In this document: piece after piece, positions 1,957 to 32,643 of the stretch
How the letters are laid out: every line of letters starts with the position of its first letter
Position numbering within the stretch: the first letter of the stretch is position 1
From: Vicinamibacteria bacterium
GTDB lineage: Bacteria > Acidobacteriota > Vicinamibacteria > Vicinamibacterales > JAENWD01
Direction of reading: 5' to 3'
Length of the DNA stretch: 64,000 nucleotides
Assembly (NCBI GenBank): GCA_963832135.1
Contig: CAWHTD010000009.1
Span: 2,012,166 to 2,076,165 of the forward strand
Position numbers and translations under genes: made by a program
The notes under the pieces: model-generated
Told to the model about the DNA's origin: nothing
Seen by the model: only the letters and a program-made list of their open reading frames with translations
The model's database searches: none

Positions 1957-2871
1957 TCAGACGATGAGTACGACTTTTCCGGGCGGGTGGCCCTGCTTCA
2001 AAGCCGTCTGCGCCGCCGCGGCCTGCGCCAGGGGATACGTCGCTGCGATCGGCACTCTGAGACGGCCGGCGTCGACCATCTCCACGAGCCGGGTCAAGAT
2101 CGCGGAGTCCAGGCGGGCGAAAACGGTCGTGATCCCCGGTCCGCTCTCAGCGATCGAACATGCGCGCTCTCGGGTCGATCCGATCTTGGCGGTCCCGTGC
2201 AGGACACCCTTGCCGACACAATCGAGCACGGCGTCGACCCCGTCGGGCGCCAAAGCCAGGATGCGACCTGCCACCCCCTCGCCCGGCGCGATAGGAAGCA
2301 CGCCGAGGGACCTGAGGAAATCGTGGTGACCCGATGACGCCGCGCCGATGACGCGCGCGCCCCTCGCCAGCGCCAACTGCGCTGCCACCGCGCCGACGCC
2401 GCCGGCGGCGCCGTGGATAAGGACGGTCTCTCCGGACTGGATCTTCAGGGTCTGGACGATCGCGCGGTAGGCCGTGAGACCCGCCAGCGGCAGGCCCGCG
2501 GCCTCCGGCCAGCTCGCCGTGCGGGGTTTCCTCGCCAGCGCTTCGACCGGAGCACTGACCAGTTCCGCATAGGCCCCGTGATGGAGGATCTCCTGACGGA
2601 TGTAGCCGATCACCTCATCCCCCGGCGCAAACTCGCTGACCCCGGCCCCGACCTGTTCGACGACGCCGGCCACATCCCATCCGGGGATGACCGGGAACCA
2701 GGCGTCCGTCTGGCTCACGCCCAGGCCGGCCTGCAGCAGATGGTCCGCCGGATTGAGCGCGGCCGCCCGGACGCGCACGAGCACGCAGTTGTAGGAGAGC
2801 TTTGGGTCCGGAACGTCGGTGTATTCCAACACCTCGGGGCCGCCGTACTGACGATAGACAACCGCCTTCAT
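1957..2871 (-). CDS. NADP-dependent quinone oxidoreductase / zinc-type alcohol dehydrogenase-like (MDR superfamily)
   Basis: 304-aa ORF: MKAVVYRQYGGPEVLEY...VRVRAAALNPAD...; Rossmann motif GAAGGVG. Confidence 0.85.
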   Translation of the reverse strand: MKAVVYRQYGGPEVLEYTDVPDPKLSYNCVLVRVRAAALNPADHLLQAGLGVSQTDAWFPVIPGWDVAGVVEQVGAGVSEFAPGDEVIGYIRQEILHHGAYAELVSAPVEALARKPRTASWPEAAGLPLAGLTAYRAIVQTLKIQSGETVLIHGAAGGVGAVAAQLALARGARVIGAASSGHHDFLRSLGVLPIAPGEGVAGRILALAPDGVDAVLDCVGKGVLHGTAKIGSTRERACSIAESGPGITTVFARLDSAILTRLVEMVDAGRLRVPIAATYPLAQAAAAQTALKQGHPPGKVVLIV

Positions 2872-2885
2872 TTCAGCCGTCCACT

Positions 2886-3365
2886 TCAGAAGGCAAACGG
2901 CAGGTTATGGCGAACCTGCAGCGACTCGATGAGCCACTGTCCATCCACGCGAACCAGCTTCTGCGTGTAGTACCCAGACTCGATCGGCGTGATCGTGCCC
3001 ATCGCGCCCGTCGCACCCGCTGGCCAGCCGCTCGCGGGTTTCGCGTCACCGAGGATGGTGAAGACCATGAACTGGGCGTCGACCGTCGCGCGGTCTCCGT
3101 CGATGTCGATCAGCAGGCCGTCGGTGGCGTTGTGGCTCCACCCTCGCGGCGGGTGCGGCTTCATCAGATGCGTCGTCGCCTGGGCGATCGCCTCGCGCCC
3201 GGCGAGTTCTCCGATCAGCTCCGGCTTCCCGTCGGGATTGTTGTTGTAGAAGATCGTCACGCGCGCCTCGGGCGTGAAGAGCGCCCCCATGGCGGCGCCG
3301 TCGCGCCGATCGTGAGCCCGGGAATAGCGGGCGAGCACTTGCTGCACGGCCAGTTCGTCAGACAT
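2886..3365 (-). CDS. SnoaL-like / NTF2-fold domain protein
   Basis: 159-aa ORF. The N-terminus MSDELAVQQVLARYSRAHDRRDGAAMGALFTPEA matches the usual SnoaL_4/NTF2-like opening pattern. Confidence 0.65.
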   Translation of the reverse strand: MSDELAVQQVLARYSRAHDRRDGAAMGALFTPEARVTIFYNNNPDGKPELIGELAGREAIAQATTHLMKPHPPRGWSHNATDGLLIDIDGDRATVDAQFMVFTILGDAKPASGWPAGATGAMGTITPIESGYYTQKLVRVDGQWLIESLQVRHNLPFAF

Positions 3366-3416
3366 CGGAATCTCCGTTCGTTCATCGTCAATTTCAACAA
3401 CACAACCGCTTGATGT

Positions 3417-3707
3417 TCACTCGACCCCCTGCACTATGAACGTGCGATATTTCGCACCACGAAACCGATGCACGACGGCCTCCTGACAGGCCGGGCTGTC
3501 GTACCACGCTTCGGCTTCCTCGAATGTCGGAAACTCGAGCACGACCGCGCCTTCGATGGGCGCACCCTCAGTCATGCGCAGTCGACCATAGGCCACCCTG
3601 GTGACCAAGCGGTATCCAGCCGCGGACCCGGCGGCCTTGTCGGCGTACAGCCGCATCTCCTTCGGATCGTGGACAGCTTCGCGCAGCGCCACAAAGAATG
3701 CGGGCAT
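3417..3707 (-). CDS. DUF1330 family protein
   Basis: Within ORF 3417..3809 the internal start MPAFFVALREAVHDPKEMRLYADKA...VLEFPTFEEAEAWYDSP..Y looks like DUF1330. The shorter start also avoids overlap with the upstream gene. Confidence 0.65.
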   Translation of the reverse strand: MPAFFVALREAVHDPKEMRLYADKAAGSAAGYRLVTRVAYGRLRMTEGAPIEGAVVLEFPTFEEAEAWYDSPACQEAVVHRFRGAKYRTFIVQGVE

Positions 3708-3711
3708 CGGT

Positions 3712-4716
3712 CTACTCCTCATGCCGAACGACGATCTTGCCGAAGACCTTCCCGCCGGCGTAGTGGGCAAATGCCGATTTGGCCTCCGCGAACGGAAACA
3801 CGCGGTCAATCACGGGGTGCATGGCGTGCGCATCGACCGCGCGGTTCATGGCTTCCACGTCGACGCGGCTTCCGACGCTGATGCAGCGGAGCGTCGCTTG
3901 ACTCATGAACAGGCCCATGAAATCCAGACCGGCTTTGCTCTCCGCGAGTGCGCCGACGAGTGCGACCTCGCCGCCGTACGCCACGGCCTTGAGCGACTCC
4001 GCCAGCGTCCCAGGCCCACCGACGTCCACGACCCGATCGACGCCTCGCCCGGCCGTCAACGCGCGCACGGCCGACCCCCATTGCGGAGTCTCGACGTAGT
4101 CGACAACGGCGTCCGCGCCGAGCGACTTCAGCCGCTCGCCATTCCGCGCGCTGGATGTCGTGGCAATCACTCGGGCTCCGAGCAGTGTGGCGAGCTGGAG
4201 CGCGAAGAGCGACACGCCACCCGAGCCCTGCGTCAGCACAGTGTCGCCGGCACGAACGCCGGCGAGTGCCGACCAGCCCGTGACCGCCGCGCATGGCAGC
4301 GATGCGGCCTCTTCGAACGTCAGACTCGAAGGAGCGAGCGAGAGCGCCTCCGTTCGAACCACCTTGTACTCCGTGAGCCACCCATCCCGATCGGAGCCGT
4401 ACATGTCAGGGTTGGGTGTCCGCGGCCCTCCGTACCAGGTCGGAAAAAATCTGCTGACCACACGATCGCCCACCTTCAGTGTGGAGACGTCAGGGCCGAC
4501 CGCCTCCACTTCACCGGCTGCGTCAGAGATCGGAACAACTCCGGCTCGCACGGGGAATGGCGCCTTGCCAAGGAGGATGGCGAGATCGCGGAAGTTGAGA
4601 GCACTCGCCTTCACGCGAATCAATACCTCTCCAGCCGATGGGACAGGCGTGGCTTCCTCACGAGCAACGAGTCCATCGAAACTGCCGATGGTTTCCAAAC
4701 GATAGACATGCATCAT
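3712..4716 (-). CDS. Zinc-binding dehydrogenase / NAD(P)H quinone oxidoreductase-like (MDR superfamily)
   Basis: 334-aa ORF: GEVLIRVKASALNFRD..., Rossmann GSGGVS, C-terminal GKIVV. Confidence 0.85.
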   Translation of the reverse strand: MMHVYRLETIGSFDGLVAREEATPVPSAGEVLIRVKASALNFRDLAILLGKAPFPVRAGVVPISDAAGEVEAVGPDVSTLKVGDRVVSRFFPTWYGGPRTPNPDMYGSDRDGWLTEYKVVRTEALSLAPSSLTFEEAASLPCAAVTGWSALAGVRAGDTVLTQGSGGVSLFALQLATLLGARVIATTSSARNGERLKSLGADAVVDYVETPQWGSAVRALTAGRGVDRVVDVGGPGTLAESLKAVAYGGEVALVGALAESKAGLDFMGLFMSQATLRCISVGSRVDVEAMNRAVDAHAMHPVIDRVFPFAEAKSAFAHYAGGKVFGKIVVRHEE

Positions 4717-4851
4717 GTTTTCTCACGAGCCTTGCCGGACAACGCTGCCAAACTCCGCCATCGGTGAATCGCAAACGGAGCTCGGCGGGATAGCCCCAGC
4801 CCGAATCATCAGCAGGCCGGACCTGATAGTTCGGCCCTTGATCGATCGGCG

Positions 4852-5601
4852 TCAGGCCACGTAACCGCCGTCGATCGTCATGCTGGCACCGGTGACAAAG
4901 CCGGATTCCGGCCCGACCAGATACGCCACCATGGCGGCGATCTCTGCCGTGCTGCCCATGCGCCCAATCGGGATCAGCGGCTTTACCGCCTCCGCCATGC
5001 CAGGCACCGACGTCATGTCGGTCACCGTGGGGCCGGGCTGGACGTTGTTGACCGTAATGCCGCGTGGCGCGAGATCGATCGCCACGCCGCGCACCAGCGA
5101 AGCGATGGCACCCTTGGTCATCGAGTAGATGCTGGCGCCCGGGAAGCCGGTTCGGACGGCAGTGTTGCTGCCGATGGTAATGACGCGACCGCCTTGCCCC
5201 ATGTGGGCAGCGGCAGCCTGGATGGCCACGACCACTCCGCGCACATTGACGGCCAGAATGCGGTCGAGATCTTCCACGCGGTATTCCAGTATGCCGCCTT
5301 GGATCAGCACGCCGGCATTGACCACGAGGATGTCGAGGCGACCGAACTGCTGCAGGGTTTTCGCCACTGCGCCGCGCAGCTCGGCCTCATTCGCGCTGTC
5401 CGCCTTGATGGCGATGGCGCGCCCGCCGCCGGCCGTCATCTGTTGCACCAGTTCAGTCGCCTTGTCCGCCGCGGCGGCGTAGGTCAGGGCGATGCCGGCG
5501 CCATCTTCCGCCAGGCGCCGCGCGATGCCGGCACCGATGCCGCGCGAGCCACCGACGACCAGCGCGATTTTGTCTTTCAGGGGCTGCAGTGCTTTTGTCA
5601 T
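4852..5601 (-). CDS. SDR-family oxidoreductase (FabG-like)
   Basis: 249-aa ORF: VVGGSRGIGAGIA (TGxxxGIG), NAG, and YSMTKGA (YxxxK catalytic motif). Confidence 0.9.
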   Translation of the reverse strand: MTKALQPLKDKIALVVGGSRGIGAGIARRLAEDGAGIALTYAAAADKATELVQQMTAGGGRAIAIKADSANEAELRGAVAKTLQQFGRLDILVVNAGVLIQGGILEYRVEDLDRILAVNVRGVVVAIQAAAAHMGQGGRVITIGSNTAVRTGFPGASIYSMTKGAIASLVRGVAIDLAPRGITVNNVQPGPTVTDMTSVPGMAEAVKPLIPIGRMGSTAEIAAMVAYLVGPESGFVTGASMTIDGGYVA

Positions 5602-5644
5602 GGGAAAAGCTCAGTTCTGGAATGAATGGTCAAAATGTGCGGAC

Positions 5645-5660
5645 ACACAGGATCCTGTGT
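5645..5660. promoter_or_regulatory. Perfect 16-bp palindrome ACACAGGATCCTGTGT, candidate TetR operator upstream of the SDR gene
   Basis: The palindrome lies ~45 nt upstream of the SDR start (5601, minus strand) and downstream of the TetR gene. A second inverted repeat, TGGACA-GATA-TGTCCA, lies at 5829-5844. Confidence 0.3.
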
Positions 5661-5889
5661 CGTGGCCCTGGGGGATTAGCGGCGCGTCAGCGCCGCCAAA
5701 GAGAACCGTGCCGTCGCCTGCAATAGTTCCGGCTTGACGCCGGCGCGTGCACCGGTCTGAAGGCCCTGCATGAGGGTGCCGATAAAACGCACCGACCACA
5801 GACTGCCTCATCGTTCTCTCCGCAGTAGTGGACAGATATGTCCAAAATTAGACATGCCGAATAACTCCGTATCTATCCATCCGAAGCGC

Positions 5890-6480
5890 CTATTGTGCCT
5901 TCAGGCCGTCGACGGCGATCGCGGCGATCGCCTTCAATGCTTCGCGAGAAGCACCCGCTCTGGCGGTGACCCTCATGCCGGCCAGTGTCGATTGAAGATA
6001 CGCGGCTGTGGTTGCCGGATCGAGCGAGGGCCGGAGCTTTCTCTTGGCCTTCGCCTCCGCCACCAGCTTTTCAAGGACTGACTGCATCGCTGATCGCGAC
6101 GCATCGTTGACGGAACGAACATCGGCGTCAGACGTTCCAAACTCGCACACCGAAGCCACGCCGAGACACGCGAGTGCCCGCTCGCCGGGATGTTCCAAGG
6201 CGATCGACACCAGCATGTCTTCGATCGCCTTCATGGGGGAGTCGGCCTTTCGAAAGATCTCGAAATATCCAAGCACGCGGTCCGAATTATATTGACGCAA
6301 CGCCTCCAAGTAGATTTCCTTCTTGCCTTTGAAGGTGTCGTAAAAGCTCTGCCGACCAATCCCCATCGCCAGACGCAAATCGTCCGTCGACGTCGCGCTG
6401 AAGCCCTTCTTTCGAAAGATGCCCAGCGCCGCTTTCAAGGCTTCATCGCGTTCGAACTCTTTCGGGCGTGCCATCTCCAA
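5890..6480 (-). CDS. TetR/AcrR family transcriptional regulator
   Basis: 196-aa ORF with an N-terminal HTH: ALGIFRKKGFSATSTDDLRLAMGIGRQSFYDTFKGKKEIY. Confidence 0.85.
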   Translation of the reverse strand: MEMARPKEFERDEALKAALGIFRKKGFSATSTDDLRLAMGIGRQSFYDTFKGKKEIYLEALRQYNSDRVLGYFEIFRKADSPMKAIEDMLVSIALEHPGERALACLGVASVCEFGTSDADVRSVNDASRSAMQSVLEKLVAEAKAKRKLRPSLDPATTAAYLQSTLAGMRVTARAGASREALKAIAAIAVDGLKAQ

Positions 6481-6611
6481 AGGCTAAAAGATTATGGATA
6501 GAGTTGTCAATAACAAAGAACAGCGAGAGGCCCGACCTACCGTGGCTGCTTCGCTTCACGATGAAAAACGAGCGGCGGCGCGGGTGGACGGCTGATCCTG
6601 GCGACGACCGT

Positions 6612-6640
6612 TTGACATACATGACGACCGTCATCTAAAC
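6612..6640 (+). promoter_or_regulatory. Candidate sigma70-like promoter (TTGACA at 6612-6617) with an embedded inverted repeat ATGACG-AC-CGTCAT (6621-6634)
   Basis: A perfect -35 hexamer is followed 16-17 nt later by TCTAAA/CTAAAC. The palindrome occupies the spacer, ~30 nt upstream of the second TetR gene, which would suit an autoregulatory operator. Confidence 0.35.
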
Positions 6641-6666
6641 TCAAGGCGTCAGTTGGGAGGCGTGCC

Positions 6667-7266
6667 ATGAGAGCGAGTCGGGAACAGTTCGCCGAAAACC
6701 GTCAGCGCATCCTCGAGGTCGCCGGAAGGCTCTTCCGCGAGAAGGGATTCGATGGAATCGGAGTGGACGGCATCATGAAAGCGGCCGGCCTGACCCATGG
6801 TGGCTTCTATGGCCACTTCGCCTCCAAGGCCCACCTGGCCGAACAGGCGTGCTCGGCGGGGCTGGCGAAAACCACGCGGAGGTTGGAAACCTTGGCGCGT
6901 GACGCACCAGAGGCCGGACTGGCCGACATCGCCCGGGACTATCTGACGAAGCAGCACCGCGACGACCCTGGCAACGGCTGCGTGTTCGCCGCGCTGGGCG
7001 GTGATGTGGCCCGCAGTTCCAAGGCCGTGCGCTTGACAGTCACCAAGGGCATTCGGGCGCAGCTCGGCATCCTCGAACGGGCCGCGAAGGGTCGCTCAAA
7101 GGCGTCGCGCCGGGAGCAGGCGATCACGGCATTGTCGGGAATGGTGGGAGCGATGGTCATTGCCCGGCTGGTGAACGATTCCACCTTGTCCGATGAAATT
7201 CTCACCGTCGCCGCGTCGGCGTTCGGTGGTCACAGAGAGACCAATCAGAAAAGGAACGCAAAATGA
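6667..7266 (+). CDS. TetR/AcrR family transcriptional regulator
   Basis: 199-aa ORF with HTH AGRLFREKGFDGIGVDGIMKAAGLTHGGFYGHFASKAHL. Its stop overlaps the start of the next gene (7263). Confidence 0.85.
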   Translation: MRASREQFAENRQRILEVAGRLFREKGFDGIGVDGIMKAAGLTHGGFYGHFASKAHLAEQACSAGLAKTTRRLETLARDAPEAGLADIARDYLTKQHRDDPGNGCVFAALGGDVARSSKAVRLTVTKGIRAQLGILERAAKGRSKASRREQAITALSGMVGAMVIARLVNDSTLSDEILTVAASAFGGHRETNQKRNAK

Positions 7267-8105
7267 CGATCGAGCTATCCGCACAGGCGCCCACCACCTT
7301 CATCGAAGCGAACGGAGTGAGGTACGCCTACCGCCGACTGGGTCAGCCCGCCGGCGTCCCACTCGTGTTTCTGCAGCACTTCACCGGGACCATGGACAGC
7401 TGGGATCCGGCGGTGGTCGATGGCTTCGCCCAAGCGCGGCCGGTCATCCTCTTCGACAACCAGGGCGTCAGCCGTTCCAGCGGCACCACGCCCGACACCG
7501 TAGCCGCGATGGCGAATGATGCGGTGGCGTTCATCACCGCCCTGGGATTGAAGCAAGTCGACCTGTTGGGTTTTTCGCTGGGCGGGTTCATCGCTCAGGT
7601 CATCGCGGCCGAACATCCCGCGTTGGTCAGGCGACTCATTCTGGCAGGTACCGGACCCGAAGGCGGGGAAGGCATTCGGAATCTGCCGCAGGCGCCGGAA
7701 CAAGCGCAGAAGACCAGTCCGGACGACTTGCGGCGCTACCTGTTCTTCGAACAGACCAATACCAGTCAGGACGCGGGTCGGGCATTCCTCAAGCGCCAGG
7801 CCCAGCGGACCGTGGATCGAGACCCGGAGAGCTCCCAGCAGACGGTTGGTGCGCAATTCACCGCGATCGTGGCCTGGGGAACGGACGGCGATCCGCGTTC
7901 GGCGCGGCGGCTGCAGCAGATCACCCAGCCGGTGCTCGTCGTGAACGGCAAGAACGACATCATGGTGCCGACCATCAACTCGTACACCCTGTTCCAACGG
8001 CTGCCCAACGCGCAGCTGAGTCTCTACCCTGATTCTGGACATGGCGGCCTCTTCCAACACGGCGAGACGTTCGTGGACGAGGGGATCCGTTTCCTGCACG
8101 AGTAA
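7263..8105 (+). CDS. Alpha/beta hydrolase
   Basis: 280-aa ORF with nucleophile elbow GFSLGG and a C-terminal DSGHG motif. Confidence 0.85.
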   Translation: MTIELSAQAPTTFIEANGVRYAYRRLGQPAGVPLVFLQHFTGTMDSWDPAVVDGFAQARPVILFDNQGVSRSSGTTPDTVAAMANDAVAFITALGLKQVDLLGFSLGGFIAQVIAAEHPALVRRLILAGTGPEGGEGIRNLPQAPEQAQKTSPDDLRRYLFFEQTNTSQDAGRAFLKRQAQRTVDRDPESSQQTVGAQFTAIVAWGTDGDPRSARRLQQITQPVLVVNGKNDIMVPTINSYTLFQRLPNAQLSLYPDSGHGGLFQHGETFVDEGIRFLHE

Positions 8106-8110
8106 CTCAC

Positions 8111-8458
8111 GTGCCGAATTCAGAACGATTGACCACGATCTCGAAGGACGCTGATCTCATTACGGTGATCAACGTCTTTACCGTCGACCCCTCGAATCAG
8201 TCACGGCTCGTCGAGCTTCTCACCAAGGCGACCGCCACCTTCGTTCGCTACGCGCGGGGGTTTATCTCGGCGAGCCTTCACCGCAGCCGCGATGGTACCA
8301 AGGTCACGATGTATGCACAGTGGCGAAGTCTTGATGACTATGAGGCGATGCGAAGGGGCCCGGGGCCCGTTCCCTATCTCCAGGAAGCCCTCACCATTGC
8401 GACGTTCGAGCCCGGAATCTACGACGTGGTCGAGTCATTCGCGCCGCCGGCGGCGTAG
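8111..8458 (+). CDS. Antibiotic-biosynthesis-monooxygenase (ABM) domain protein
   Basis: 115-aa ORF: ITVINVFTVDP...FISASLHRSRDGTKVTMYAQWRSLDDYEAM is the typical ABM ferredoxin-like pattern. Confidence 0.7.
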   Translation: MPNSERLTTISKDADLITVINVFTVDPSNQSRLVELLTKATATFVRYARGFISASLHRSRDGTKVTMYAQWRSLDDYEAMRRGPGPVPYLQEALTIATFEPGIYDVVESFAPPAA

Positions 8459-8470
8459 TCGGAGTACACC

Positions 8471-9409
8471 ATGACGCATGACATCGTTCAAACCTCCGCC
8501 GCGGACACGTTGCCGCCCTTCGACCCTGCGACGTTCTGGACGCAGTTCCACCACGATACCGTCGTGATCAAGGGCGTGCGGCTGCATTTCGTCGAAGGCG
8601 GCAGCGGCACGCCGATCCTGCTGCTGCCCGGCTGGCCGCAGAGCTGGTACGCATGGCGTTATGTGATGCCGCTGCTCGCCAAAGCCGGTCGGCGCGTGAT
8701 CGCGCTCGACCCGCGCGGCATGGGCGACTCCGATCGGCCCGCCTCTGGCTACGAGATGCGCACCGTGGCCGCCGAGCTTCATGATTTCGTCGAGGCGATG
8801 AAACTGACGGCGAACGGGCCTGTCGACATCGTCGGTCACGATCTCGGCACCTGGATCGGCTATGCCTATGCGGCCGAATGGCCGGGCGACGTGAAGCGGC
8901 TCGCGGTGTTCGACGCGGCGCTGCCCGGCATCACCCCGCCGCCTCCGGCCGGCATTCCCTCGGCGGAGGCGAATGTGAGGACCTGGCACTTGGCCTTCAA
9001 CCGGCTCGATGACCTGCCGGAGATCCTGCTGCAGGGACGCGAGCGGGAGCTTCTGACTTGGCTGTTCAGGGCCAAATCCACTCGTCCCTGGACGATCACG
9101 CCGGCGGATCTCGATGAATACGTGCGCGTCAACGCCGCCCCCGGCGCGACGCGGGCGGCGCTGTCCTACCAACGACACAATCTCGGGCCCGAAGGCATCG
9201 CGCACAATCGGGCCCGCGCCGAGCGCAAGCTCGCCATGCCGGTACTCGCTGTCGGCGCGGAGAGCGGAGCCGGAGCAACGCTGCCCGACACGATGCGCTT
9301 AGTCGCGGCGGATGTGCGGGGTGCTGTGTTTGCTGGCTGTGGGCACTATATGGCCGAAGAAGCCCCCCGCGCCGTCGCCGAGCAAATCATCAGGTTCATG
9401 GGTAAATGA
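8471..9409 (+). CDS. Alpha/beta hydrolase (epoxide hydrolase / haloacetate dehalogenase-like)
   Basis: 312-aa ORF: LLLPGWPQSWYAWRYVMP, nucleophile motif GHDLGT, C-terminal GCGHYMAEE. Confidence 0.85.
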   Translation: MTHDIVQTSAADTLPPFDPATFWTQFHHDTVVIKGVRLHFVEGGSGTPILLLPGWPQSWYAWRYVMPLLAKAGRRVIALDPRGMGDSDRPASGYEMRTVAAELHDFVEAMKLTANGPVDIVGHDLGTWIGYAYAAEWPGDVKRLAVFDAALPGITPPPPAGIPSAEANVRTWHLAFNRLDDLPEILLQGRERELLTWLFRAKSTRPWTITPADLDEYVRVNAAPGATRAALSYQRHNLGPEGIAHNRARAERKLAMPVLAVGAESGAGATLPDTMRLVAADVRGAVFAGCGHYMAEEAPRAVAEQIIRFMGK

Positions 9410-9694
9410 GTGCGGCCCGCTGACGGCTTGAGCCAGCAAAAGCTGCGTCGCTCTCCGAGTTTCTACCTCGCGAAACCTTAGCGAACCTGTCAAAAATAGG
9501 CCATTTAGGCGGGCTTCTAGGATCAACCAGTTGCGGACCGCGTTTTCCAGCCCGTCGAACATTTCGCGCAGGTCATCGACGTACGAATCAGCCGTCGGCA
9601 CACTCCATCATCATCGTCGTCGGGTCGCTCGCGCTTGGCGCGCTCGATTGAGGACCGTGACCCTCTCGCGAGTAATCTGGCGGCTGACGGCCAG

Positions 9695-11109
<1,415 letters not shown>

Positions 11110-11530
11110 GCGTGACGGCCTGGCGGCGGCTCAGTACGACCGGCGAATGCAGAGGCTATGCGCCGTAGCTCTATAGACGAAACCCTGGCGAAGCTGTTGA
11201 AAGAAGGCCGGTTTACGCGGCTTCACGGATGAGCCAGTTGCGGAAATCGTCCAGTGCGGCGAGCCAATCCTTTCAATTGCTTGCGGCCGGTCGATTTGCA
11301 TTCGGATTCGGAGTGTACCTACATCTGTACCTGTCCCTACCGAGAAGTCGATCTGGCATGGTCAGCGCGAGCTCAATGGCGTTGATCACAGGTTGGCGTT
11401 GAGCCGTGGTGCACTCGGAGGCATCACTCCAACGCGAGCATCGCCGTCGGTGTCGACCTGACTGAACACGCGAAGGCCGTCCGTCAGCTGGCGCAGTAGC
11501 ACCGAAACGACGGGCCTTTTGGCACCGTCG

Positions 11531-12538
11531 CTACGCCGCTGCGCGGTCGTAGCGGTGATGCAGGCCGTTAACCTGTGGAATCTCGACGATGCGTCCGGCA
11601 GAGAGCGGCGTGGCGGGTCGTGACGCCGGTGCGTCCTTGCCGAGACTCAGGTGCGTCCTCGTGTTCATGTAGTACGCGACGTAGTCGGCGAGGACGCGCT
11701 GGAGCCCGGCGACACTGAGTACGATCACGTGATCGAGGCACTCACGTCGGATCGAGCCAATGACGCGCTCGACGTAGGCGTTCTGCCACGGCGATCGCGG
11801 CGCCGTGAGGACCTCGTGGATCTGCATCGCGCCGATGGTGGACACGACGTCCGTGAATGCGGCATCGCGGTCGTGCAGCAGGTACCGCGGCGCGTGGTCC
11901 TCGGGAAAGGCGTTGCGGAGTTGTTGGGCCGTCCATGCGGCCGTGGGATGGTCGGTGACGGCGACGTGGACGATCCGTCGCCGGTCGTGCGCGAGGATGA
12001 CGAGCACGAACAACAGCCGGTAGGTGACCGTTGGCACGACGAAGAAATCGGCAGCCATGATCTGGCCGACATGGTTGGCCAGGAACGTTCGCCACGGCTG
12101 TGATGGTGGCTTGTCTCGTCGCGGCATGTACTTCGCGACGGTCGCCTGACTCACCGAGATCCCCAGCTTCTGCAGTTCCCCATGAATCCGCGGCGCACCC
12201 CAGAGCGGATTCGCGGCGGCCATTCGACGAATCAACGCGCGGACCTCTGGAGCCGCGGCTGGACGACCCGTACGGTACCGACTCTTCCACGTCCAGAACA
12301 GGCGGAACCCGCGTCGGTGCCAGGCGAGTACGGTGTCCGGCTTGACGAGGACGAGCGCCGGCCGCCAACCGCTCCACGCCTGCGACAGCCACGCCCAGAG
12401 AACCCGATCCGCCGCGGTCAGACGAAGTCGCGAGGGGCGCGAGCGATTCAGGACCGCCAACTGATGCCGGAGCGCGAGGATCTCGAGGTGCAGAGCCGCG
12501 CGCGATCGAGTTGATGTCGTCTCGCAGCTTCCACGCAC
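11531..12538 (-). CDS. IS transposase, integrase-core (rve, DDE) type; the only apparently intact copy in the window
   Basis: 335-aa ORF: LEILALRHQLAVLNRS...WHRRGF...ADFFVVPT...HDRDAAF...PWQNAYVERVIGSIRRECLDH...GLHHRYDRAAA. IS ends and inverted repeats could not be defined by eye. Confidence 0.85.
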   Translation of the reverse strand: MRGSCETTSTRSRAALHLEILALRHQLAVLNRSRPSRLRLTAADRVLWAWLSQAWSGWRPALVLVKPDTVLAWHRRGFRLFWTWKSRYRTGRPAAAPEVRALIRRMAAANPLWGAPRIHGELQKLGISVSQATVAKYMPRRDKPPSQPWRTFLANHVGQIMAADFFVVPTVTYRLLFVLVILAHDRRRIVHVAVTDHPTAAWTAQQLRNAFPEDHAPRYLLHDRDAAFTDVVSTIGAMQIHEVLTAPRSPWQNAYVERVIGSIRRECLDHVIVLSVAGLQRVLADYVAYYMNTRTHLSLGKDAPASRPATPLSAGRIVEIPQVNGLHHRYDRAAA

Positions 12539-12705
12539 GACTCAGCAGACCGAGGTGCGGATGACGGTGGAGATGGAGGTCAGTGAGATCGGCAATCAAT
12601 ATGCCCTCCGCCGCTTCAAATGAAGAGATCGACATCGCCACCCTCGAGGCGGCGCGGCTGACGTTGCCGTATCCCGGTGCATGCGACGATCAGGCATCTT
12701 GACGC

Positions 12706-13353
12706 ATGGGAATGACCGGTGGGCTCGTTCGAGCCTCTCTCAAAGAAATCGCGCGTTTGCGCGAACACCCGGCCGAACTGCCGGAGTTCTTGGATTGCGG
12801 AATCTGGGCGCCGCCCAATCGCGAAGTGCGACCCAAGGGAATTCTCGGATGGCTGCTGAGGCTGACGCCGGTGAGGATCTACGAAAGCGATCCAGATGCC
12901 GTGCCGCCGCCCGGCGCCGAGCACGGCGCCCTCCGGCCGAACGTCGATCTCGACAAGGCGTGGGAACCGTTGCATTTCCTGCTCACCGGCACCGCGCTAG
13001 AGGGCGAAGAACCCGCGTGCTATCTCGCCCGCGGTGGTGAGGAAATGGTCGAGCAACTGGACGATGAACTGGGCGATGAAGGGAGCGTGTACAGCTCGAT
13101 TCGTGTGCTCACGCCAGATCACGTGGCGGCGTTCGATCGACACCTTTCGTCACTTACCATCGACGAGCTGAGACGCCGGTTCGACGTCAACCGCATGGTC
13201 GAACTGCGGATCTATGCGAAACGTCGGAGCACGAAGGCGCCGACTAACGACGACAGGACGCTGGATCACCTCATCGAGGCGTTTGAGGATCTGCGCACGT
13301 TCGTGCGTGAAACCGCCGCGTCAGGTGCGGGCGCGATCGCGTATTTGACGTAG
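12706..13353 (+). CDS. DUF1877 (YfbM-like) family protein
   Basis: 215-aa ORF. The pattern ASLKEIARLREHPAELPEFL...VDLDKAWEPLHFLLTG matches the YfbM/DUF1877 signature as I remember it. The gene is convergent with the repeat protein. Confidence 0.6.
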   Translation: MGMTGGLVRASLKEIARLREHPAELPEFLDCGIWAPPNREVRPKGILGWLLRLTPVRIYESDPDAVPPPGAEHGALRPNVDLDKAWEPLHFLLTGTALEGEEPACYLARGGEEMVEQLDDELGDEGSVYSSIRVLTPDHVAAFDRHLSSLTIDELRRRFDVNRMVELRIYAKRRSTKAPTNDDRTLDHLIEAFEDLRTFVRETAASGAGAIAYLT

Positions 13354-13519
13354 CGGCATTCTTGAGACCGTCTACTGACTGGGCTCGGCATCGCCAGAAT
13401 CGAGCTGTCGAACACCTCTCCGGTGTCCGCTGCCGGGTTCCATCAACCGAATGGTGGGACACTACGGGCGCAAGTCGTCCCGTCCGCCCAGCGGCGCCGC
13501 AGCGTGAGCCAGAACGGCC

Positions 13520-15344
13520 CTAATGTTTCCTTCGCCAGTCGCGAACTATCGATATCGTCGCCGAAGATGCAACCTTCGGTGCGATGGGCGCCGGCGATGA
13601 AGCCTTCGTCGTCATAGACGACGATTGTCCCTTCCCCGCGGCGGTTGCTGTCGCAGCTGCGGCCGACGGCACCTTTCCGGTCGCCTTTGCTCCCTGCGCC
13701 GAGTCAACCTTGCCTGCGGGCACTGCCGCCGATGGGATCTTCGCCGCCGGTGGAGCGGCGGGTACCTTCGCGTCGGCCTTCGGCGCCGGAGCGGCTGCGG
13801 CCTGCGTCGCTTTTCCGCTCGCCTCTGCTCCCTTCACCGAGTGAACTTTGCCAGACGGCGCCGCGGACGATGGGACCTTCGCCGCCGGCGGAGGAGGGGG
13901 GACTTTCGCGTCGGGCTTCGGCGCCGGAGCGGCCTGCGGCACTTTTCCGCTCGCCTTTGCTTCCTTCACCGAGTGAACCTTGCCTGACTGCGCCGCGGAC
14001 GATGGCACCTTCGCCTCGCCTGGAGCGCCTTGGGCGTTGGGGATTTTCGCATCGCTCTTCGGAGCGAACTTCTTAATATGCGTGTGTATGACCGTGTCCG
14101 GGGGCGCCCCGAGTTCGCCGGTCCAGAACGGCTCACAGTGACGCTCGCAGGCTGGACCGGATGTGCCGGTGAAGACGCCTTTCGCTCCTTGCCTGAGCAG
14201 CTCCGCCGGTCCCTCAGACTCGACGTGCCAGACGGGGTCGAGCTGGGTGCCCTGCATTCTTGATGCGGGCGATGGACCCAGACTCGCCATCGGTGGCAAG
14301 GGGGTGTGGCCCTTGTCGAGTGCTGCCTTGAGTGCGTTCCACACCTTCTCATCCGACACGGTAACTACGTAGCGCAACTCGCCATTTACTACACCGGCAC
14401 TGACGGCAACCGTGAGGTTCCGATTCCCGGACATGCTCCTGATCTGAGACGCAGCCTGGTTCAGGAAGTGCTCCTTCGTGTGCACGACAGCCTCGTCCCT
14501 GATCATCGCCTTGATGAATGCGTTCACGTCGGCTGGTAAGCCACCGCCTTCTCCAGCTGTGCTCCCTGTCGGCTGAGGAACTTTCTGGATAGGCGCGGGC
14601 TGCGGGACTTTTGGCACCGCTGGGGGCAGCGGGACTTTCGGCACTGATGCGAGCGGCGCGTGCGACGGTACAGCATTGCCGACAGCATTGACGGCAGCGA
14701 GCGCTGCGGCTGCAATCGGCGGAAGCGCGGGCACGGGTGCTCCCGGAGCTGTCGGTGCGGCGGGAAGCTTCGGTGCCTTCGCCGCCGGAACTTCGGCCGC
14801 CGCTGGCGCCGGGGGAAGTTTGGGCGCGGCTTCGTTCGGAGGGAGCTTCGGCGCGGCCGCCTTCGGAAGCTCGGCCCCGGCTGCCGGGATCGGGAGTTTC
14901 GGCACTTCTGGTGCCGGCGGCGGCTTCGGCACGCGTGCGGGTGGGAGTTCGGGCGCAGCCGGTATCGGAACCCGACGGGGCATAGCCGCCAGCATCATAA
15001 GCAGTCCAAAAAGGGCCTCCGCCTCCTTGTATCGTTGCGCTCCTGCTTCCTGATGGTCGCCTGCCCTGGCGGCCTGCTCCGCCTTTCGGTCCGCCTCGCC
15101 AGCCTGCTTGACGGGATCGAGCACGCGCGCCGCCGCGAGAACGCCGCTCGGCCCACCGCCTTCGCTCCTGTACCTGAACCGGCATCTCCTTGATGATTGC
15201 CTTCCCGGCGTCGACGATGCCGTCGACGATGCGGACGGGAGCCGGTATCAGAGAGGCCTGCACGACTGTCGTGATGTGGGTCTTGGCCGCCTCTTTCACA
15301 AAGCCCTTCAACTGTTCAAGGTACTTTGAGTCAGGTTCTGACAT
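13520..15344 (-). CDS. Pro/Ala-rich repeat protein with a central globular domain carrying a deaminase-like HVE...C-x3-C signature (apparent frameshift near 15,130-15,190)
   Basis: ORF 13520..15124 (534 aa) has PKLP/PAAP low-complexity sequence at the N-side and three ~45-aa tandem repeats at the C-side. The central segment is NLTVAVSAGVVNGELRYVVTVSD...WHVESEGPAELLRQGAKGVFTGTSGPACERHCEPFW (HVE at 14,219-14,227; Cys codons at 14,147 and 14,135). A sensible N-terminus, MSEPDSKYLEQLKGFVKEAAKTHITTVVQASLIPAPVRIVDGIVDAGKAIIKEMPVQV, starts at 15,344 in another frame behind GGGAG and then degenerates into Arg/Gly junk. That implies a one-base frame change. Confidence 0.6.
13628..14014 (-). repeat. 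Three in-frame tandem coding repeats (~129-141 bp each) inside the Pro/Ala-rich gene
   Basis: The unit is approximately AKVP..AAKVPSSAA.SGKVHSVK.A.ASGK..QAA.APAPK.D. The DNA copies are visibly similar (gcctttgct.ccttcaccgagtgaac.ttgcc...). Confidence 0.8.
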
Positions 15345-15372: not shown

Positions 15373-18300
15373 TCACCCCTGCGCCTCGGCAACCAACCTG
15401 TCCGTTATCCACCGAATAGTCGCTGGCGCTCTCCCAGCGTCCATCGTCAACATCTGCTGAGCAAAACACAGACACGCGCGTTGCACGGGTTCCTGCGACT
15501 GGCGAGCAGAATCGGGCCGCTCCGCCGCGGGGAACTCGATCAGGTCGTACCCCGCACGCAGACACAGCTGCCAGGTCTGTGGATATCCTTCCTGTGTGGC
15601 GTCCGCCTGCTCGGCCGCCTGCCACCCGGCGCTATACCTCCCTTCCCCTATCAGGTCGGCCGCCGAGTACCGATACAGACACACCGCAGGCTCCTGGCGG
15701 CAGATCTGTTCGCACGCGACGAACGGAGGATAGTGGCGTGCATGGAGGGCATAGACATAGTCGTGAAACTCTGCACGCGATGGCTCCGGCTCCTGATCCG
15801 TCAATCTGGCCAGCAACATCTCACGCAGCTTGCTGGCCAATGTCTCAGTGTCGGAATACGTCCACTGCGCCTGCGCGCCGCGTTTCGTGGCGAACCAGTG
15901 GGCGGCACGAATCATCAGACAGCGGTTCAACTCCTGCTCGTCCAGCTTCTGGGGACGTTTCGCTCGTACCGACGGACAGCAGATTTGGCCAGACGCGATC
16001 GAGAGCGGAGGTGTCTTCAATGGTCGAGAGGATCGAGTGCGCGAACACGCGCTGGAATTGCTGGTCCTCCACGATGTGCCGCGCCGCGTCGCAGGCCGGG
16101 CCTCTCGTGATACAGGTTCGAGCGCACGACGGAAACGGCAGCAACAGGGACATGTCGATGTTCGGGGCTTGCCCACTCGCCTTGCCGGCGACCTCCGCGT
16201 TGTCCGGCGGGGACACACTGGGCCGTTGCTTCTTCGCCGGCACCTGGACCAACACGGGAGCGTCATCTCCTTCGCTGAACACTGCTGCTTGGCCCACAGC
16301 CAGCGTGGCGAGAGCCTGCACCTGCCGGTCGTTCATCGCCATCGCTCCTGCCAGCGATGCGCGATCGTCGAACGCGACCACGCGGTGGACAACCTTCAGG
16401 TTCGTGTTCTTGATCACGTCTGGAGCCAACCTGCCTGGAATCTGGTCGGCGATCACGACTCCCTGGCCGTAAGCCCTGATCTCGGACAGCAGGTTCGCGA
16501 AGGTCTCCACGGCCTTGCCGCGGGCGTTGGCCTCTTCCGACCGCTTCTGGGTCTCCACGGCGGAAAGGAGGCGGTGCGCCTCCTCTATCACGAGCAGGTG
16601 TTGCAGGTCATGGTGGCCGGAGGCACGCCGGAACTCAACCAGCCGGATGAACAACAGGCCCATCAGGAACGCCTTGTCGTCATCGTCGCCAATCGCCTCC
16701 AATTCAAGAACCGTGGGGTGTTCCAGGAGCGCACTCATCGAAAAGGAGCGCTGTACGTCGAGCATGCGACCCTTGCTGCCGCTGCGCAGGCTGTTGATCC
16801 TGGTGAGCAGCGCCGCGCGGATCGTCGCTTCGCTCTCGGCGTCATACCGGAGCGCCTGCGTCACGGCATCTACCTTCGCCGCCAGCTCCGAGAGCGTCGG
16901 GAACGCGGCGGTGAGATCCGCGTCCTCGTCCAGCCGCGCGTTGCTGTTGGTGGCCGTGTCCCATCCGCGATCTTCGTAGACGTAGTGGAGACACTGTTCC
17001 AGGACGGCCGGCAGCACCGACCACAAGCCGAAGCTCGCGTTGAAGACGGAGCGCAGCAGGTCGAGATGCACACCAACGGGAGTTCCCGGGAGCGCTTCGA
17101 GCGGATTCAATCGCAGCGGCGATACGTTCTCGTTGCCGAGGGTGAAAATCCGCAGCTTTGCCCCCAGTGCGGAGTCCCGGAGCAACGCACGGTATTCGGT
17201 CTTGGCGGGTTCGATGACCAGAAAGGGGATGTCTCGCGCCGCCGCCTGCCCGAGCAGGTGGAAGATCGTGTTCGTCTTGCCGGCTCCGGTCACCCCGGCG
17301 ACAAACGCGTGGCGCGCCAGGGCGTTGTACGTGATGGCGTAATTTGCCGGGGTGGGTCGTCCTCGATGAATAACCTGTCCTACCTGCAACCCCGCGTCAT
17401 CTGCGATTGGTGAACGGACGACGTCGAAATCGGGCACGGCCACCACGCTGAATCCACTTGTCTCGAGCTGTGGCAGGTGGATGTACGCGGCCAGTTGTGC
17501 CGAGGTGAGCAGGGTCTGAAACTGAAAAGGATGGCGGTAGCTGCCTGGTCCGGGCGAACCCTCGACATCCGGGATCGCCCAACCCCGGGCCAGATCCGTG
17601 GCGATCGGGCAGTCCCAGATGCGCACGGGTTCAGGTATCGAATGCTCGCCGGAAAACACACCACGCCAGACGCTCGCCAGGCGGTAGTAGCTGGTCGTAT
17701 CACCGAGGAGGTACACACTTGTCCGCCACCCGCCGATTGCGCCACCCGATGTGACGTTCTTGAGGAGTCCCTGAAGCAACTCGAGGTAGGACCGACTCAA
17801 CGGACTTGGCGCGGCCGCGGGATGCATCGGGGACTGAACCGCTCGCATCTCGTTGATGATGCCGTTCCGTAAATCGGAGATCGTGCTCTCGTGGACCGGT
17901 TCCGCGAGCACAAGCGCCGTCCAGGGGACGCCCGACAGCGCACGAATGAGCCGATCGAGCGGCAGCGCTCCGTCAACGGGATCGCCGGGTTTTGCCGTGG
18001 GGACCCCGAGTGCGAGGCCGGCTCGAGACGTCTGCCCTTCGTGTTCGTGTTCGGCCGCCGGAACGAGCTCGATCGAGGGGTAAAGGCTGTGAAGCATGGA
18101 GCCCAGGATCTGCTGCCGGTCGTCCATGACGGAGGCTGAGGCGCTCTCGCGTTCCGCCGGAGACCACACGCCCAGTTGAACGACCACGCCGTCGGCGGCC
18201 CCCTCGACGACGAACGCAACGGGAATCTTGTAGCCATACAGGCCGATCAGCACATCCTCGCTCACGAGTCGTCCGGGCGCGGAGCGGCCCGCCTTCTCGC

Positions 18301-18466
18301 CACGACCGATGGCGGTGACGCGTGAGACGCGGCGAAGTGGGGGTGGCGCGTGAGAGACCGGTGTGTTCCCGGCGAGAACGGCGACGTCCAGCGTCGTTCG
18401 CTGCAAGTAGTCCAGATGGTCGGTCGTGGCGATATCGGCCGGCATATGACCTCCACCCTGCGTCAT
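15373..18466 (-). CDS. HerA/FtsK-superfamily (DUF87-like) P-loop ATPase with an unassigned ~390-aa N-terminal region and a Cys-containing C-terminal extension (apparent frameshift near 15,960)
   Basis: ORF 15845..18466 (873 aa) carries Walker A GVTGAGKT (17,273-17,296), IPFLVIEPAKTEY, Walker B LLVIEEAHRLL and EIRAYGQGVVIADQIPGRL. The tail of that frame is junk-like, while ORF 15373..16266 reads sensibly from ...RAKRPQKLDEQELNRCLMIRAAHWFATKRG... onward. A strong SD (GGAGG) precedes the second Met, suggesting a start at 18,445. Confidence 0.75.
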
Positions 18467-18479
18467 CCCTGCCGATGCT

Positions 18480-19123
18480 CTAGGTAGTAGACACGGTGGC
18501 GCTCGGGGCGGATTGCAGGACCCGCGCCGGACAGCTCACGACGGGTGCACTTCCGATCGCAGCGCCCACGCGAGGAGCGGGCACCGGGCGCACGGTCGGC
18601 CCAAAGTTGCCGATGATCCTGAAGAAGAACAGGAAGAACACGACGAACAGCGCGATCACCACGACCGCTTTCACCACGGACCGCCAATTGACTGCTTTCG
18701 CGCGGACGGTCGCGCCTGTGGTCAGGTTGCGCACCCTCCCGGGACGGACGATCCGCCCCTCGCGCCAGGCCCCGGTACCTCCACCCGATCGCCATCGTTG
18801 ACGAACCCTTCGAACGATCGGCTCCGCATCTCGACGGGCACCGGTGGCAGGCGATTGCCGTCGGCGTCATGTCGCTCGACCCGAAACGTCCAGACGATGT
18901 GCGTGGAAGATTGCGCGCCGCGGGATTCGGTTCGGCTCTGGAAGCCTCGCACTTCGCCGACGATCGCGTCCGTGCGAGACTCAATTGAGTTGGTTATAGG
19001 GTCTGCGCCTTCGGACGTACGCGCTCCCATGGCACCGGCATCTGAAGCGCCCCGCCAACCTGCACCGGCGGGGCCCGTGCCCGGAGGATTGGACAAGGGC
19101 GGTCGGGTGGCTTTGTCGGCCAT
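18480..19123 (-). CDS. Small protein with a beta-rich (OB/SH3-like?) domain and a C-terminal TM helix (apparent frameshift near 18,760)
   Basis: ORF 18722..19150 contains ...IVWTFRVERHDADGNRLPPVPVEMRSRSFEGFVNDGDRVEVPGP. ORF 18480..18734 continues in another frame as ...REGRIVRPGRVRNLTTGATVRAKAVNWRSVVKAVVVIALFVVFFLFFFRIIGNF.... The likely start is MADKATR (19,123), behind AAGGAA. The gene ends 13 nt before the ATPase ORF. Confidence 0.5.
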
Positions 19124-19331
19124 GGCCAGTTCCTTTCTCCCGGTCATCATGGGCGGATCACTTCATCCGGGCAACGAAATCGGACTACTGAGACCTTGCC
19201 GAGGAAGCGCGGCGCATCGAAGTGGCAGGCGGCCGATTGGAACGGAACCCAGCGGGACTTCACTGCAGAATCCCAGACTACAAGCCTTAGGGCGGCAGCG
19301 TAGGGGAGGGTATCCGAAGCGAGGGGTAGCG

Positions 19332-20344: not shown

Positions 20345-20810
20345 GGACGGCGCGTCCAGATTGTGGGATCAACGCCGCATCCCGACGGTCTGTTCATGCG
20401 GCAGGTGAGTCGCACGCTGACCGGTACGGACGGGCCTGTTGGGCGCCCATCGCGTGCTGATTTGTGATCGTGACCGACAATGGAGCCGGAACGTGCGACA
20501 ACGGCTGGGCGACGCCGGGGTGCGCATCGTGCAGAGGCCGTTTTCAGGCGCCAAATGCGAACGCCTACGCCGAGCGGTTCGTGCGGTCCATCAAGCACGA
20601 GTGCCTCGACCGGATGGTGTCCCTCGGCGAGCGCCACTTTCGACGCGCTCTCAAGGAATTCGTCGATCACACCATTGCGAGCGGAATCACCAAGGACTCG
20701 ACAATCGGCTTATCGATGGGAGCGCGCCGAGGCGACGCGAGGGCGGGATCCGTCTGTGGCCGCGGCTGGGTGGCTTGCGAACCGAGAACTTCGCGTCCTC
20801 TGGCGGCGTG
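20345..20810 (+). pseudogene. rve-type IS transposase, 5'-truncated and frameshifted fragment
   Basis: Stitched frames read GSTPHPDGLFMRQVSR...[13 protein letters not shown]...[42 protein letters not shown]...[14 protein letters not shown]. This is closely parallel to the 36.1-37.15 kb copy. Confidence 0.75.
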
Positions 20811-20814
20811 AGAT

Positions 20815-32193: not shown

Positions 32194-32643
32194 GTCTGGT
32201 CTCACCTATGCGCGCCGCAGCCGCAAGTCCTCGCCGTTTTCCGTGGCCCAGACACACCCACAGGGCCTCACAGCGCCAGTACGCAATACCGGGCGCCGCC
32301 TCGTGCGGCATGGCAGCGCAGCGGGGACGACAAAACCCAGACGCACCGTATGCCGGCCGCCAGGACACGCCTCCCCTCCGAACGATGGCGTGATACTGGA
32401 GCGCCCAGGCTCTTCCACTGCCCACCGTCCAAAAGGGGGGTGGCGCAGCGCGGTTACGAGAGTATAGTCACTGCCACCTGATCGAATGCTCGCCAGTAAG
32501 CAGACCGTCAGACCAGCTGCGCAGGACTCGGTAAGGACCTGACCCGACTGCTCAGTAGGCGAGCGCTGTTCGTAAATTCCTGCGTGCGCGCCGCGCCGCA
32601 CCCGACGGATCGCGTGCGCCGGCGAGATCGGCCGGAGGGGCTT

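Follow-up and report, generated by a model that had tools for sequence, protein, structure and literature searches.

Does a histidine-valine-glutamate motif, followed 23 residues later by a pair of cysteines in the middle of a protein rich in proline and alanine, mark a deaminase toxin? The question is raised by a minus-strand gene at 13520-15344 in a 64,000-nucleotide stretch of DNA from a Vicinamibacteria bacterium (contig CAWHTD010000009.1), referred to below as the window. An earlier note on this gene, made from the letters alone, had proposed a cytidine-deaminase-like zinc site in its central domain. The reading favoured here, at a probability of roughly 0.6, is that of a rare deaminase-like toxin module deployed by an ATPase operon, with predicted zinc binding, catalysis, substrate and toxicity and a putative role for the ATPase.

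The domain, its family and its predicted fold

The gene and its product show the following features.

13520-15344, minus strand: toxin-slot gene, encoding a protein of 607 amino acids (aa) after deletion of base 15173 and collinear with the orthologue P0001
15173, minus strand: extra single base, G in CAGGTAC, which splits the reading frame of the toxin-slot gene
about 14542-14980, minus strand: P/A-rich, PKLP-type low-complexity linker (29% Pro, 25% Ala)
14050-14551, minus strand: deaminase-like domain of 167 aa, of ordinary composition and unnamed family, indicated by homologues, models and fold matches
14219-14227, minus strand: H109-V-E111, predicted zinc ligand and catalytic Glu at the start of helix 110-120; H and E invariant in 16/16 sequences
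14135-14149, minus strand: C135-E-R-H-C139, predicted zinc-binding Cys pair at the start of helix 139-144; both Cys invariant
14084-14086, minus strand: H156, invariant His of a WHT[NH] motif in the last strand
13659-14015, minus strand: tandem repeat with a period of 138 nucleotides (nt), or 46 aa, 2.7 copies and 82% matches

The long minus-strand open reading frame (ORF) runs from a GTG at 15124 to a stop at 13520 and has 534 aa. In a different frame, an ATG at 15344 opens 57 sensible codons (MSEPDSKYLEQLKGF...MPVQ). Deletion of base 15173 joins these first 57 residues to ...YRSEGGGPSGVLAAARVLDP... and yields 607 aa, the junction reading MPVQ/YRSEGGG after repair versus MPVQYRKEGGG in the intact 566-aa P0001. 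The earlier treatment of 13520-15344 as one protein gene was right about the start, 15344 being the true one, and wrong about the frame, which is broken by the extra base in the DNA as sequenced.

The repaired protein consists of an N-terminal helical region, the P/A linker, the deaminase-like domain, three repeats of about 46 aa and a short tail. It is probably a long, mostly disordered protein with one predicted catalytic module. The PKLP-type segment, the globular segment of about 170 aa and the tandem repeats of about 45 aa described in the earlier note were all recovered at the positions listed above, and the residues of its HVE ... 23 aa ... C-x3-C signature are present as described. The codon-position GC content of the globular part (0.54-0.68 / 0.38-0.56 / 0.72-0.78) is like that of neighbouring real genes, so the frame of this segment is taken to be coding. 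Domain residues are numbered from codon 14551-14549.

Repeat number varies between relatives, which the earlier note had suggested checking: the window protein has three units and P0001 two, with C-terminal tails of 186 and 139 aa, respectively, and 73% identity over the domain. Flexible spacing is the most likely role of the Pro/Ala linker and of the 46-aa repeats with their variable number. The embedding of the domain between two such arrays, remarked on earlier as an unusual architecture, is real in the window protein and is a lineage-specific trait. A repeat tail beyond the domain occurs only in the window protein and its orthologue; complete homologues end with the domain.

Neither the whole protein nor the domain matched anything in Pfam, NCBIfam or PADLOC, and the domain matched no PDB sequence either by sequence search or with the family profile. 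A word-indexed homologue search with the domain alone found no match among 5.8 billion proteins, and its repetition with the family profile returned just 4 proteins. When 1.84 billion cluster representatives were searched exhaustively with phmmer, 18 matched, 15 of which are true homologues (E 5e-69 to 7e-6). The other three (P0015, P0017, P0018) were rejected as low-scoring WHTIR-type repeat proteins with multiple short matches. The domain was absent from plasmid and phage collections searched with tblastn. When the 16 members, i.e., the window copy and its 15 homologues, were scanned individually against Pfam, no family matched, and no deaminase family appeared even at E <= 10. By these sequence searches, the domain belongs to a real, rare and unnamed family, and it finds no convincing place in any other.

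The 16 aligned sequences are 31-72% identical to the window copy (among the homologues) and have 11 invariant columns, which include H109, E111, C135, C139 and H156. In the DNA, the H codon lies at 14227-14225 and the E codon at 14221-14219; 23 residues follow, then C at 14149-14147, E-R-H, and C at 14137-14135. The Cys spacing is C-x3-C in 14 of the 16 sequences and the canonical C-x2-C in the remaining 2. Conservation of the H, E and C residues, on which the earlier proposal depended, is complete (16/16 for all four). As these four make up 4 of just 11 invariant columns, the motif is more than a chance occurrence. H156 is not known to have a counterpart in the canonical deaminase signature and might bind the substrate or serve as an additional metal ligand.

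The AlphaFold2 model of the window domain, built with the family alignment, has a pLDDT of 89 and a pTM of 0.86. Its elements are, in order, two N-terminal helices, a hairpin (48-55, 58-65), an insert (helix 68-79, strand 89-91), helix 110-120 beginning at HVE, strand 126-130, helix 139-144 beginning at the Cys pair, and strand 154-156. A second model was made for P0012, a member whose insert is short and whose Cys pair is CxxC (pLDDT 83); here, HxE starts helix 95-105. In both models, a helix begins at HxE, a strand follows, and the Cys pair opens the next helix. As modelled, this succession of hairpin, HxE helix, strand, Cys-pair helix and strand is that of the deaminase core. In the deaminase fold, [H/C/D]xE stands at the N-terminus of helix 2 and (P)CxxC at the N-terminus of helix 3, about 25-30 residues on, with one strand between them. 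In the new family, the invariant H109-V-E111 stands at a helix start in both models, and the Cys pair, mostly C-x3-C, comes 23 residues after the Glu with strand 126-130 between the motifs.

Foldseek searches of the PDB point the same way. With the window model, 27 of the top 50 matches are deaminases (yeast CDD1, DddA, bacterial Cdd, AID and APOBEC3H), at weak scores (best E 0.09, TM 0.30-0.43). With the P0012 model, deaminases account for 47 of the top 50, next to two RadC proteins and one designed protein, and the best E is 0.016. They comprise cytidine, cytosine, guanine, tRNA-adenosine and blasticidin-S deaminases, APOBEC proteins and DddA, the last matched at a probability of 0.98 and a root-mean-square deviation (rmsd) of 3.6 A over 90 columns. 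Viral protein models gave none but weak matches, which include a CMP deaminase and a RibD-type deaminase. Structure prediction, proposed earlier as a check, has thus given the expected element order in two models, and the best structural matches are deaminases, DddA included. Most likely, the domain adopts a zinc-cytidine-deaminase-like fold and serves as toxin cargo.

Toxin cargo, the ATPase operon and its surroundings

The use as cargo is indicated by the proteins in which the domain occurs. In P0003, P0005 and P0006, it stands at the extreme C-terminus, after an Rhs core and a DPxGL cleavage motif. The gene of P0003, from an Acidobacteriota metagenome-assembled genome (MAG; locus L003), is preceded by SpvB/TcB-like and Rhs ORFs, and the locus of P0006 (L086) has genes for TcA (PA14, ABC_toxin_N, Neuraminidase, TcA_TcB_BD), TcB (SpvB, FG-GAP) and TcC/Rhs proteins. 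The hypervariable cargo region of TcC holds toxic enzymes, YwqJ-type deaminases included (PMC7861908). The homologues in L003 and L086 show the arrangement of Tc cargo, with TcA and TcB genes in the locus and an Rhs shell ahead of the domain; the window protein lacks Rhs repeats, and its neighbours include neither TcA nor TcB. The Tc-like locus of L003 (2391-10474) is split into three overlapping ORFs (2391-5798, 5803-8922 and 8600-10474), probably by assembly frameshifts, and an ORF of 716 aa (10477-12627) begins 3 nt past the toxin stop.

Elsewhere, the domain follows long disordered regions (L004, L005, P0011, P0014) or short unrelated N-termini. BLAST comparison of the members' N-terminal regions found no similarity except between the window protein and its orthologue, and a common N-terminal trafficking domain was rejected on this ground. 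One C-terminal domain on unrelated N-termini is a trait of polymorphic toxin systems as defined by Zhang et al. 2012, and since the N-terminal regions of the family are unrelated, the domain behaves as a toxin module of such systems. Its position as C-terminal Rhs/Tc cargo suggests a self-contained toxic module that is passed from one toxin gene to another. The homologues in this position strengthen the toxin-like reading of the earlier note. The window gene probably represents a new family of deaminase-like toxin domains, with catalysis, substrate and toxicity predicted from fold and context.

In the window, the gene is the third of a minus-strand operon, after those of the small membrane protein and the HerA-like ATPase.

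18480-19150, minus strand: small protein with a beta-rich domain and one C-terminal membrane helix, the conserved partner of the ATPase; break near 18750
15373-18466, minus strand: HerA-like (DUF87) ATPase of about 1030 aa; break near 15950; stop 29 nt before the start of the toxin-slot gene

The ATPase has one P-loop/Walker A site and matches DUF87. The match to FtsK_SpoIIIE is weak (E 0.074), and its PDB profile matches are HerA proteins alone. PADLOC HerA models match it partially, in the C-terminal half of the ATPase domain only (E 1e-13 to 1e-14), and NF042943 gives 49.6 bits versus a curated cut-off of 800. Two assignments of this protein were rejected. A type VII ATPase (EssC/YueA) does not agree with the single P-loop, the weak FtsK_SpoIIIE match, the lack of EssC/EccC among the PDB profile matches and the lack of WXG/LXG substrates. 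A defence-type HerA does not agree with scores far below the curated cut-offs and with the lack of a Sir2, DUF4297 or NurA partner in the operon or the scanned neighbours.

The rejoined membrane protein matches the protein upstream of the ATPase in L006 at E 2e-17, and the domain of this ATPase partner has no match among Pfam families. Its consensus is roughly FRxERxDxxGNxxxxVxVEMRG...DGDxVEV...NxTTGAxV, with a C-terminal membrane helix in most loci (examples at L006:8519-9808, L010:2156-3091, L014:3565-4494 and L017:3615-4772). Depending on the locus, the partner also occurs in fusion with an FHA domain, a zinc ribbon or a Ser/Thr kinase.

ATPase and deaminase-like genes adjoin in the window and four other loci, the latter gene being directly downstream in all but one. 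They adjoin on the P0001 contigs; in L001/L002, the ATPase is 53% identical to that of the window and the toxin gene is divergent; in L004 and L005, from two Pseudonocardiaceae MAGs, the ATPase lies immediately upstream of the deaminase-like gene.

In metagenomes, 600 stretches matched the ATPase profile, at least 456 of which encode relatives, and the best 80 loci (L006-L085) were kept. None of these 80 contains the deaminase-like domain. Among the proteins directly downstream of the ATPase, 20 of 54 end in toxin nuclease domains (LHH 11, Colicin-DNase 4, WHH 4, Endonuclea_NS_2 1), and 11 of 38 following genes encode SUKH/SMI1_KNR4 immunity proteins. With nuclease toxins at this position elsewhere, the deaminase-like gene occupies a slot that holds toxins in other loci.

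Plasmids of cyanobacteria, Acinetobacter and Lactococcus encode further relatives of the ATPase. Homologues with 48-50% identity to the window ATPase are found on Streptomyces and Rhodococcus plasmids, where the genes downstream encode long, disordered proteins lacking any recognisable domain. The two plasmids are the Streptomyces avidinii plasmid (L091) and the Rhodococcus opacus PD630 plasmid pRoPD630_2 (L092), where the protein is annotated as 'DUF87 domain-containing protein'; in L092, genes for MobC and a relaxase are found a few kb from the ATPase homologue. Distant ATPase loci (L050:1307-3355, L043:2387-4216, L031:6478-9757, L093, L094) contain a dynamin-like GTPase with a weak LeoBC/Eleos match, Hsp70-like proteins, a GTPase and WYL-domain regulators, as is typical of conflict or defence islands.

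The operon lies among the following genes.

12706-13353, plus strand: DUF1877 gene, convergent neighbour, part of the conserved backbone and outside the operon
11531-12538, minus strand: complete insertion sequence (IS) transposase with a helix-turn-helix domain and an rve integrase core
20464-20811, plus strand: C-terminal fragment of an rve-type transposase, judged by eye from the translation

The DUF1877 region (12663-13378) is 92.6% identical in DNA to four metagenomic contigs (L087-L090). The similarity ends at 13378, 25 nt past the DUF1877 stop, and the flanks differ on both sides, which indicates that the toxin operon and the neighbouring IS element are in a variable region. The transposase and the rve fragment bracket the DUF1877 gene and the operon. 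DUF1877 was considered as an immunity gene and rejected, as related contigs carry it without the operon. Farther off, the window contains two large OMP_b-brl_4 barrels, one with an N-terminal CarboxypepD_reg domain, an ASPIC/UnbV FG-GAP protein and large TPR proteins (32584-36009, 43783-46659, 38521-40446, 40415-42931). Its sole RNA gene by Rfam and ARAGORN is a tRNA-Asn (GTT) at 305-379. A PEP-CTERM gene is present on the P0001 contig; together with the gene content of the window, it suggests a two-membrane soil bacterium, possibly one of the Acidobacteriota.

Proposed mechanism and alternative explanations

In the proposed mechanism, His109, Cys135 and Cys139 would hold a zinc ion that activates water, and Glu111 would shuttle the proton. 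The target-cell base deaminated hydrolytically in this way would most likely be cytosine, whether in DNA, in RNA or in a nucleotide. Between strand 2 and the HxE helix lies an insert of 45 residues, a probable cap over the active site. The ATPase module probably deploys the window protein, because the same position in distant relatives holds nuclease toxins and SUKH genes. Deployment would mean export or unfolding of the protein, comparable to the handling of type VII secretion toxins by FtsK/HerA-type pumps; type VII secretion is the model for toxin export by such a pump (PMC3113570).

Several observations weigh against this reading. Neither model had a Foldseek match at E <= 0.001, and the TM-scores are 0.30-0.44. 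None of the 16 members matched a deaminase family of Pfam, NCBIfam and the PDB profile search gave no match, and no sequence or profile link to DddA was detected. As sequenced, the toxin-slot gene is frameshifted. The toxin-immunity pairs are confined to a distant sub-clade of the ATPase (32-39% identity), of low GC content and from the gut. What follows the ATPase in the closer sub-clade, as on the Streptomyces and Rhodococcus plasmids, are long, disordered proteins that carry no recognisable toxin domain; one has an OmpA-like domain. Apart from the ATPase itself, no ORF near the ATPase-linked deaminase-like genes is common to the loci, and no cognate immunity gene lies immediately downstream of the window toxin, where the neighbour is the backbone gene DUF1877. 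A nucleic-acid toxin synthesised in the cytoplasm would be expected to have a conserved immunity gene beside it. Finally, the locus has no recognisable outer-membrane export component, and the host looks two-membrane.

The strongest alternative holds a real though minor share of the probability. According to it, the deaminase-like effector acts inside its producer, in anti-phage defence or abortive infection, with the membrane protein and the ATPase sensing or unfolding, so that neither export nor immunity is needed. In its favour, the ATPase-linked copies have no adjoining immunity gene, the nearest solved and profiled relatives of the ATPase are defence-type HerA proteins, and other relatives stand beside WYL regulators, LeoBC-like dynamin, GTPases and Hsp70-like proteins and are often plasmid-borne. 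The window operon, moreover, belongs to a variable region, between an IS transposase and what looks like an rve fragment. The missing immunity gene and the defence-like neighbours keep this alternative alive. Export is nevertheless favoured, because SUKH immunity genes are present and the domain serves as Rhs/Tc cargo. SUKH genes after the toxins in 11 of the 38 related loci are a signature of toxins aimed at other cells, and in Rhs/Tc toxins the same domain is export cargo. HerA models score far under their curated cut-offs (49.6 versus 800 bits). Long Pro/Ala spacers, too, are typical of proteins located in the cell envelope or crossing it.

It is improbable that the domain has kept a deaminase-like fold and its metal site while working as another zinc hydrolase or a binding module instead of a base deaminase. 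The lack of sequence relationship to any characterised deaminase family would fit such a function, as would the extra invariant H156 and the unusual H-x-E-x-E consensus. The deaminase-like fold does include non-deaminases such as JAB/RadC (PMC3239186), and RadC is among the fold matches. The motifs of JAB-type proteins differ, however (PMC3239186), and the deaminase signature is exactly this pairing of HxE with C-x2-3-C, each opening one of two consecutive helices. True deaminases also make up 47 of the 50 top structural matches.

A dead locus, in which real frameshifts have left three operon pseudogenes in a decaying region beside insertion sequences, is improbable as well. Frame breaks do occur in all three operon genes, and transposase sequence is present on both sides. 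Judged versus intact homologues, the ATPase gene is broken near 15950 inside a CCCC run and the membrane-protein gene near 18750 at a GGGG run. An unrelated glycosidase-like gene 40 kb off has a similar 1-nt insertion at about 56017 (CC for C), with a product 98.6% identical to the intact 962-aa metagenomic protein P0037. All four single-base breaks are thus at short base runs (GG, CCCC, GGGG and CC). Coding-type GC content is kept on both sides of the break. On the orthologous contigs of P0001, the three genes are intact (183, 1021 and 566 aa) and ordered as in the window. The source contig, at 2.14 Mb, suggests a long-read assembly. With like 1-nt breaks in three other window genes, intact orthologues and a contig of this length, the break at base 15173 is probably an assembly indel error. 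Programmed frameshifting at 15173 was rejected, given the like breaks at short base runs in the three other genes.

It is very improbable that HVE...CxxxC is a chance pattern in a domain with an unrelated fold and an unrelated function: fold-search E-values are all > 0.01 and sequence-profile searches all negative, but the four residues are invariant across distant homologues and correctly placed in the secondary structure of two independent confident models, and the fold match lists are overwhelmingly deaminases, although these are a tiny part of the PDB.

A wider proposal can be attached to the favoured reading of a deployed deaminase-like toxin, and is itself doubtful at present. In it, the ATPase and its single-pass beta-domain partner would form the core of an undescribed, widespread ATP-driven toxin-deployment system. 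The downstream gene would be a swappable cargo position, taken by LHH/WHH/colicin-type nucleases with SUKH, metallopeptidase-like proteins or deaminase toxins, and the deaminase family might have an unusual substrate or sequence preference, in which case it would be of use in base editing. No description of a polymorphic toxin system linked to HerA/DUF87 was found in the literature searched, the coverage of which was incomplete, so that novelty is not proven.

Bacterial toxin deaminases are the raw material of base editors, and DddA enabled mitochondrial DNA editing. Each new family of toxin deaminases has brought a different substrate range and sequence preference. Deaminase-type toxins as such are already known; the present family is new in being absent from Pfam, NCBIfam and PDB and in having about 15 representatives in 1.84 billion clustered proteins. 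It could supply base-editing enzymes whose specificity might be changed by the C-x3-C motif, the large insert (a probable cap) and the extra invariant His. The loci of HerA-like ATPases are a large uncharacterised group, many with toxin and immunity genes, and would represent either a new toxin-export route or a new toxin-based defence. Either role is relevant to research on bacterial competition and anti-phage immunity.

Comparison with known systems

The HerA-Sir2 and HerA-DUF4297 defence systems likewise place a HerA-type ATPase gene beside a toxic effector. Unlike theirs, the window ATPase is about twice as long and has no Sir2 or DUF4297 partner, and related loci have immunity genes.

Type VII secretion (EssC/YueA with WXG/LXG toxins and SUKH) resembles the window-type loci in having an ATPase of the FtsK/HerA superfamily beside variable C-terminal nuclease toxins and SUKH genes (PMC3113570). 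The type VII ATPase has three tandem FtsK/SpoIIIE domains, whereas that of the window has a single P-loop domain of the DUF87/HerA type. Type VII substrates carry WXG100/LXG, and none of the 54 proteins downstream of window-type ATPases does. The partners differ as well, being a single-pass beta-domain protein and, in some loci, dynamin-like or Hsp70-like proteins.

At the level of the domain, a non-canonical Cys motif in helix 3 is shared with the Bd3614 clade and APOBEC4, which have CxMxC and Cx5C, respectively (PMC3239186, Iyer et al. 2011). The same work gives precedents for inserts before helix 2 and reports that C-terminal strands were lost in several toxin clades, strand 5 being absent in Bd3614. 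As C-x3-C-like departures, inserts and strand loss are documented in other deaminases (PMC3239186), the peculiarities of the new family are not disqualifying. Bd3614 and APOBEC4 have no detectable sequence relationship to it and are not toxin cargo.

The YwqJ-type and other deaminase cargo of TcC/Rhs proteins is alike in setting, since relatives of the window domain occupy the same C-terminal hypervariable slot in loci with TcA and TcB. It belongs to a different sequence family, the new one having no Pfam match, and the window copy stands without an Rhs shell.

A further comparison is with DddA and the SCP1.201 family (PF14428; 6u08, 8e5d), to which the earlier note had pointed on account of the spacing and flanking residues. 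There, too, helix 2 begins with HVE and helix 3, about 24 residues on, with a Cys pair, in a small domain at the C-terminus of Rhs-type polymorphic toxins. Among the PDB matches, DddA gives the best local superposition (probability 0.98, rmsd 3.2-3.8 A over 81-90 columns). Most members of the new family differ from it in having C-x3-C, not CxxC, and a DddI-like immunity gene is lacking. For the profile comparison, the DddA toxin sequence used was confirmed versus 6u08 at E 5.5e-92. Alignment of the family to DddA alone with hhalign was not significant (E 0.21), with HVE placed on HVE over 25 columns; a three-sequence DddA alignment, shallow because the homologue search gave two sequences, returned E 0.11 over 25 columns, which makes this a weak test. 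Membership in SCP1.201/PF14428 was rejected on these values and on the lack of any PF14428 match in the 16 members. The likeness noticed earlier therefore holds for fold and motif and does not extend to an atypical membership of SCP1.201. With no sequence or profile link to SCP1.201/DddA or to the Pfam deaminases, the domain is best placed in a separate family with a predicted deaminase-like fold.

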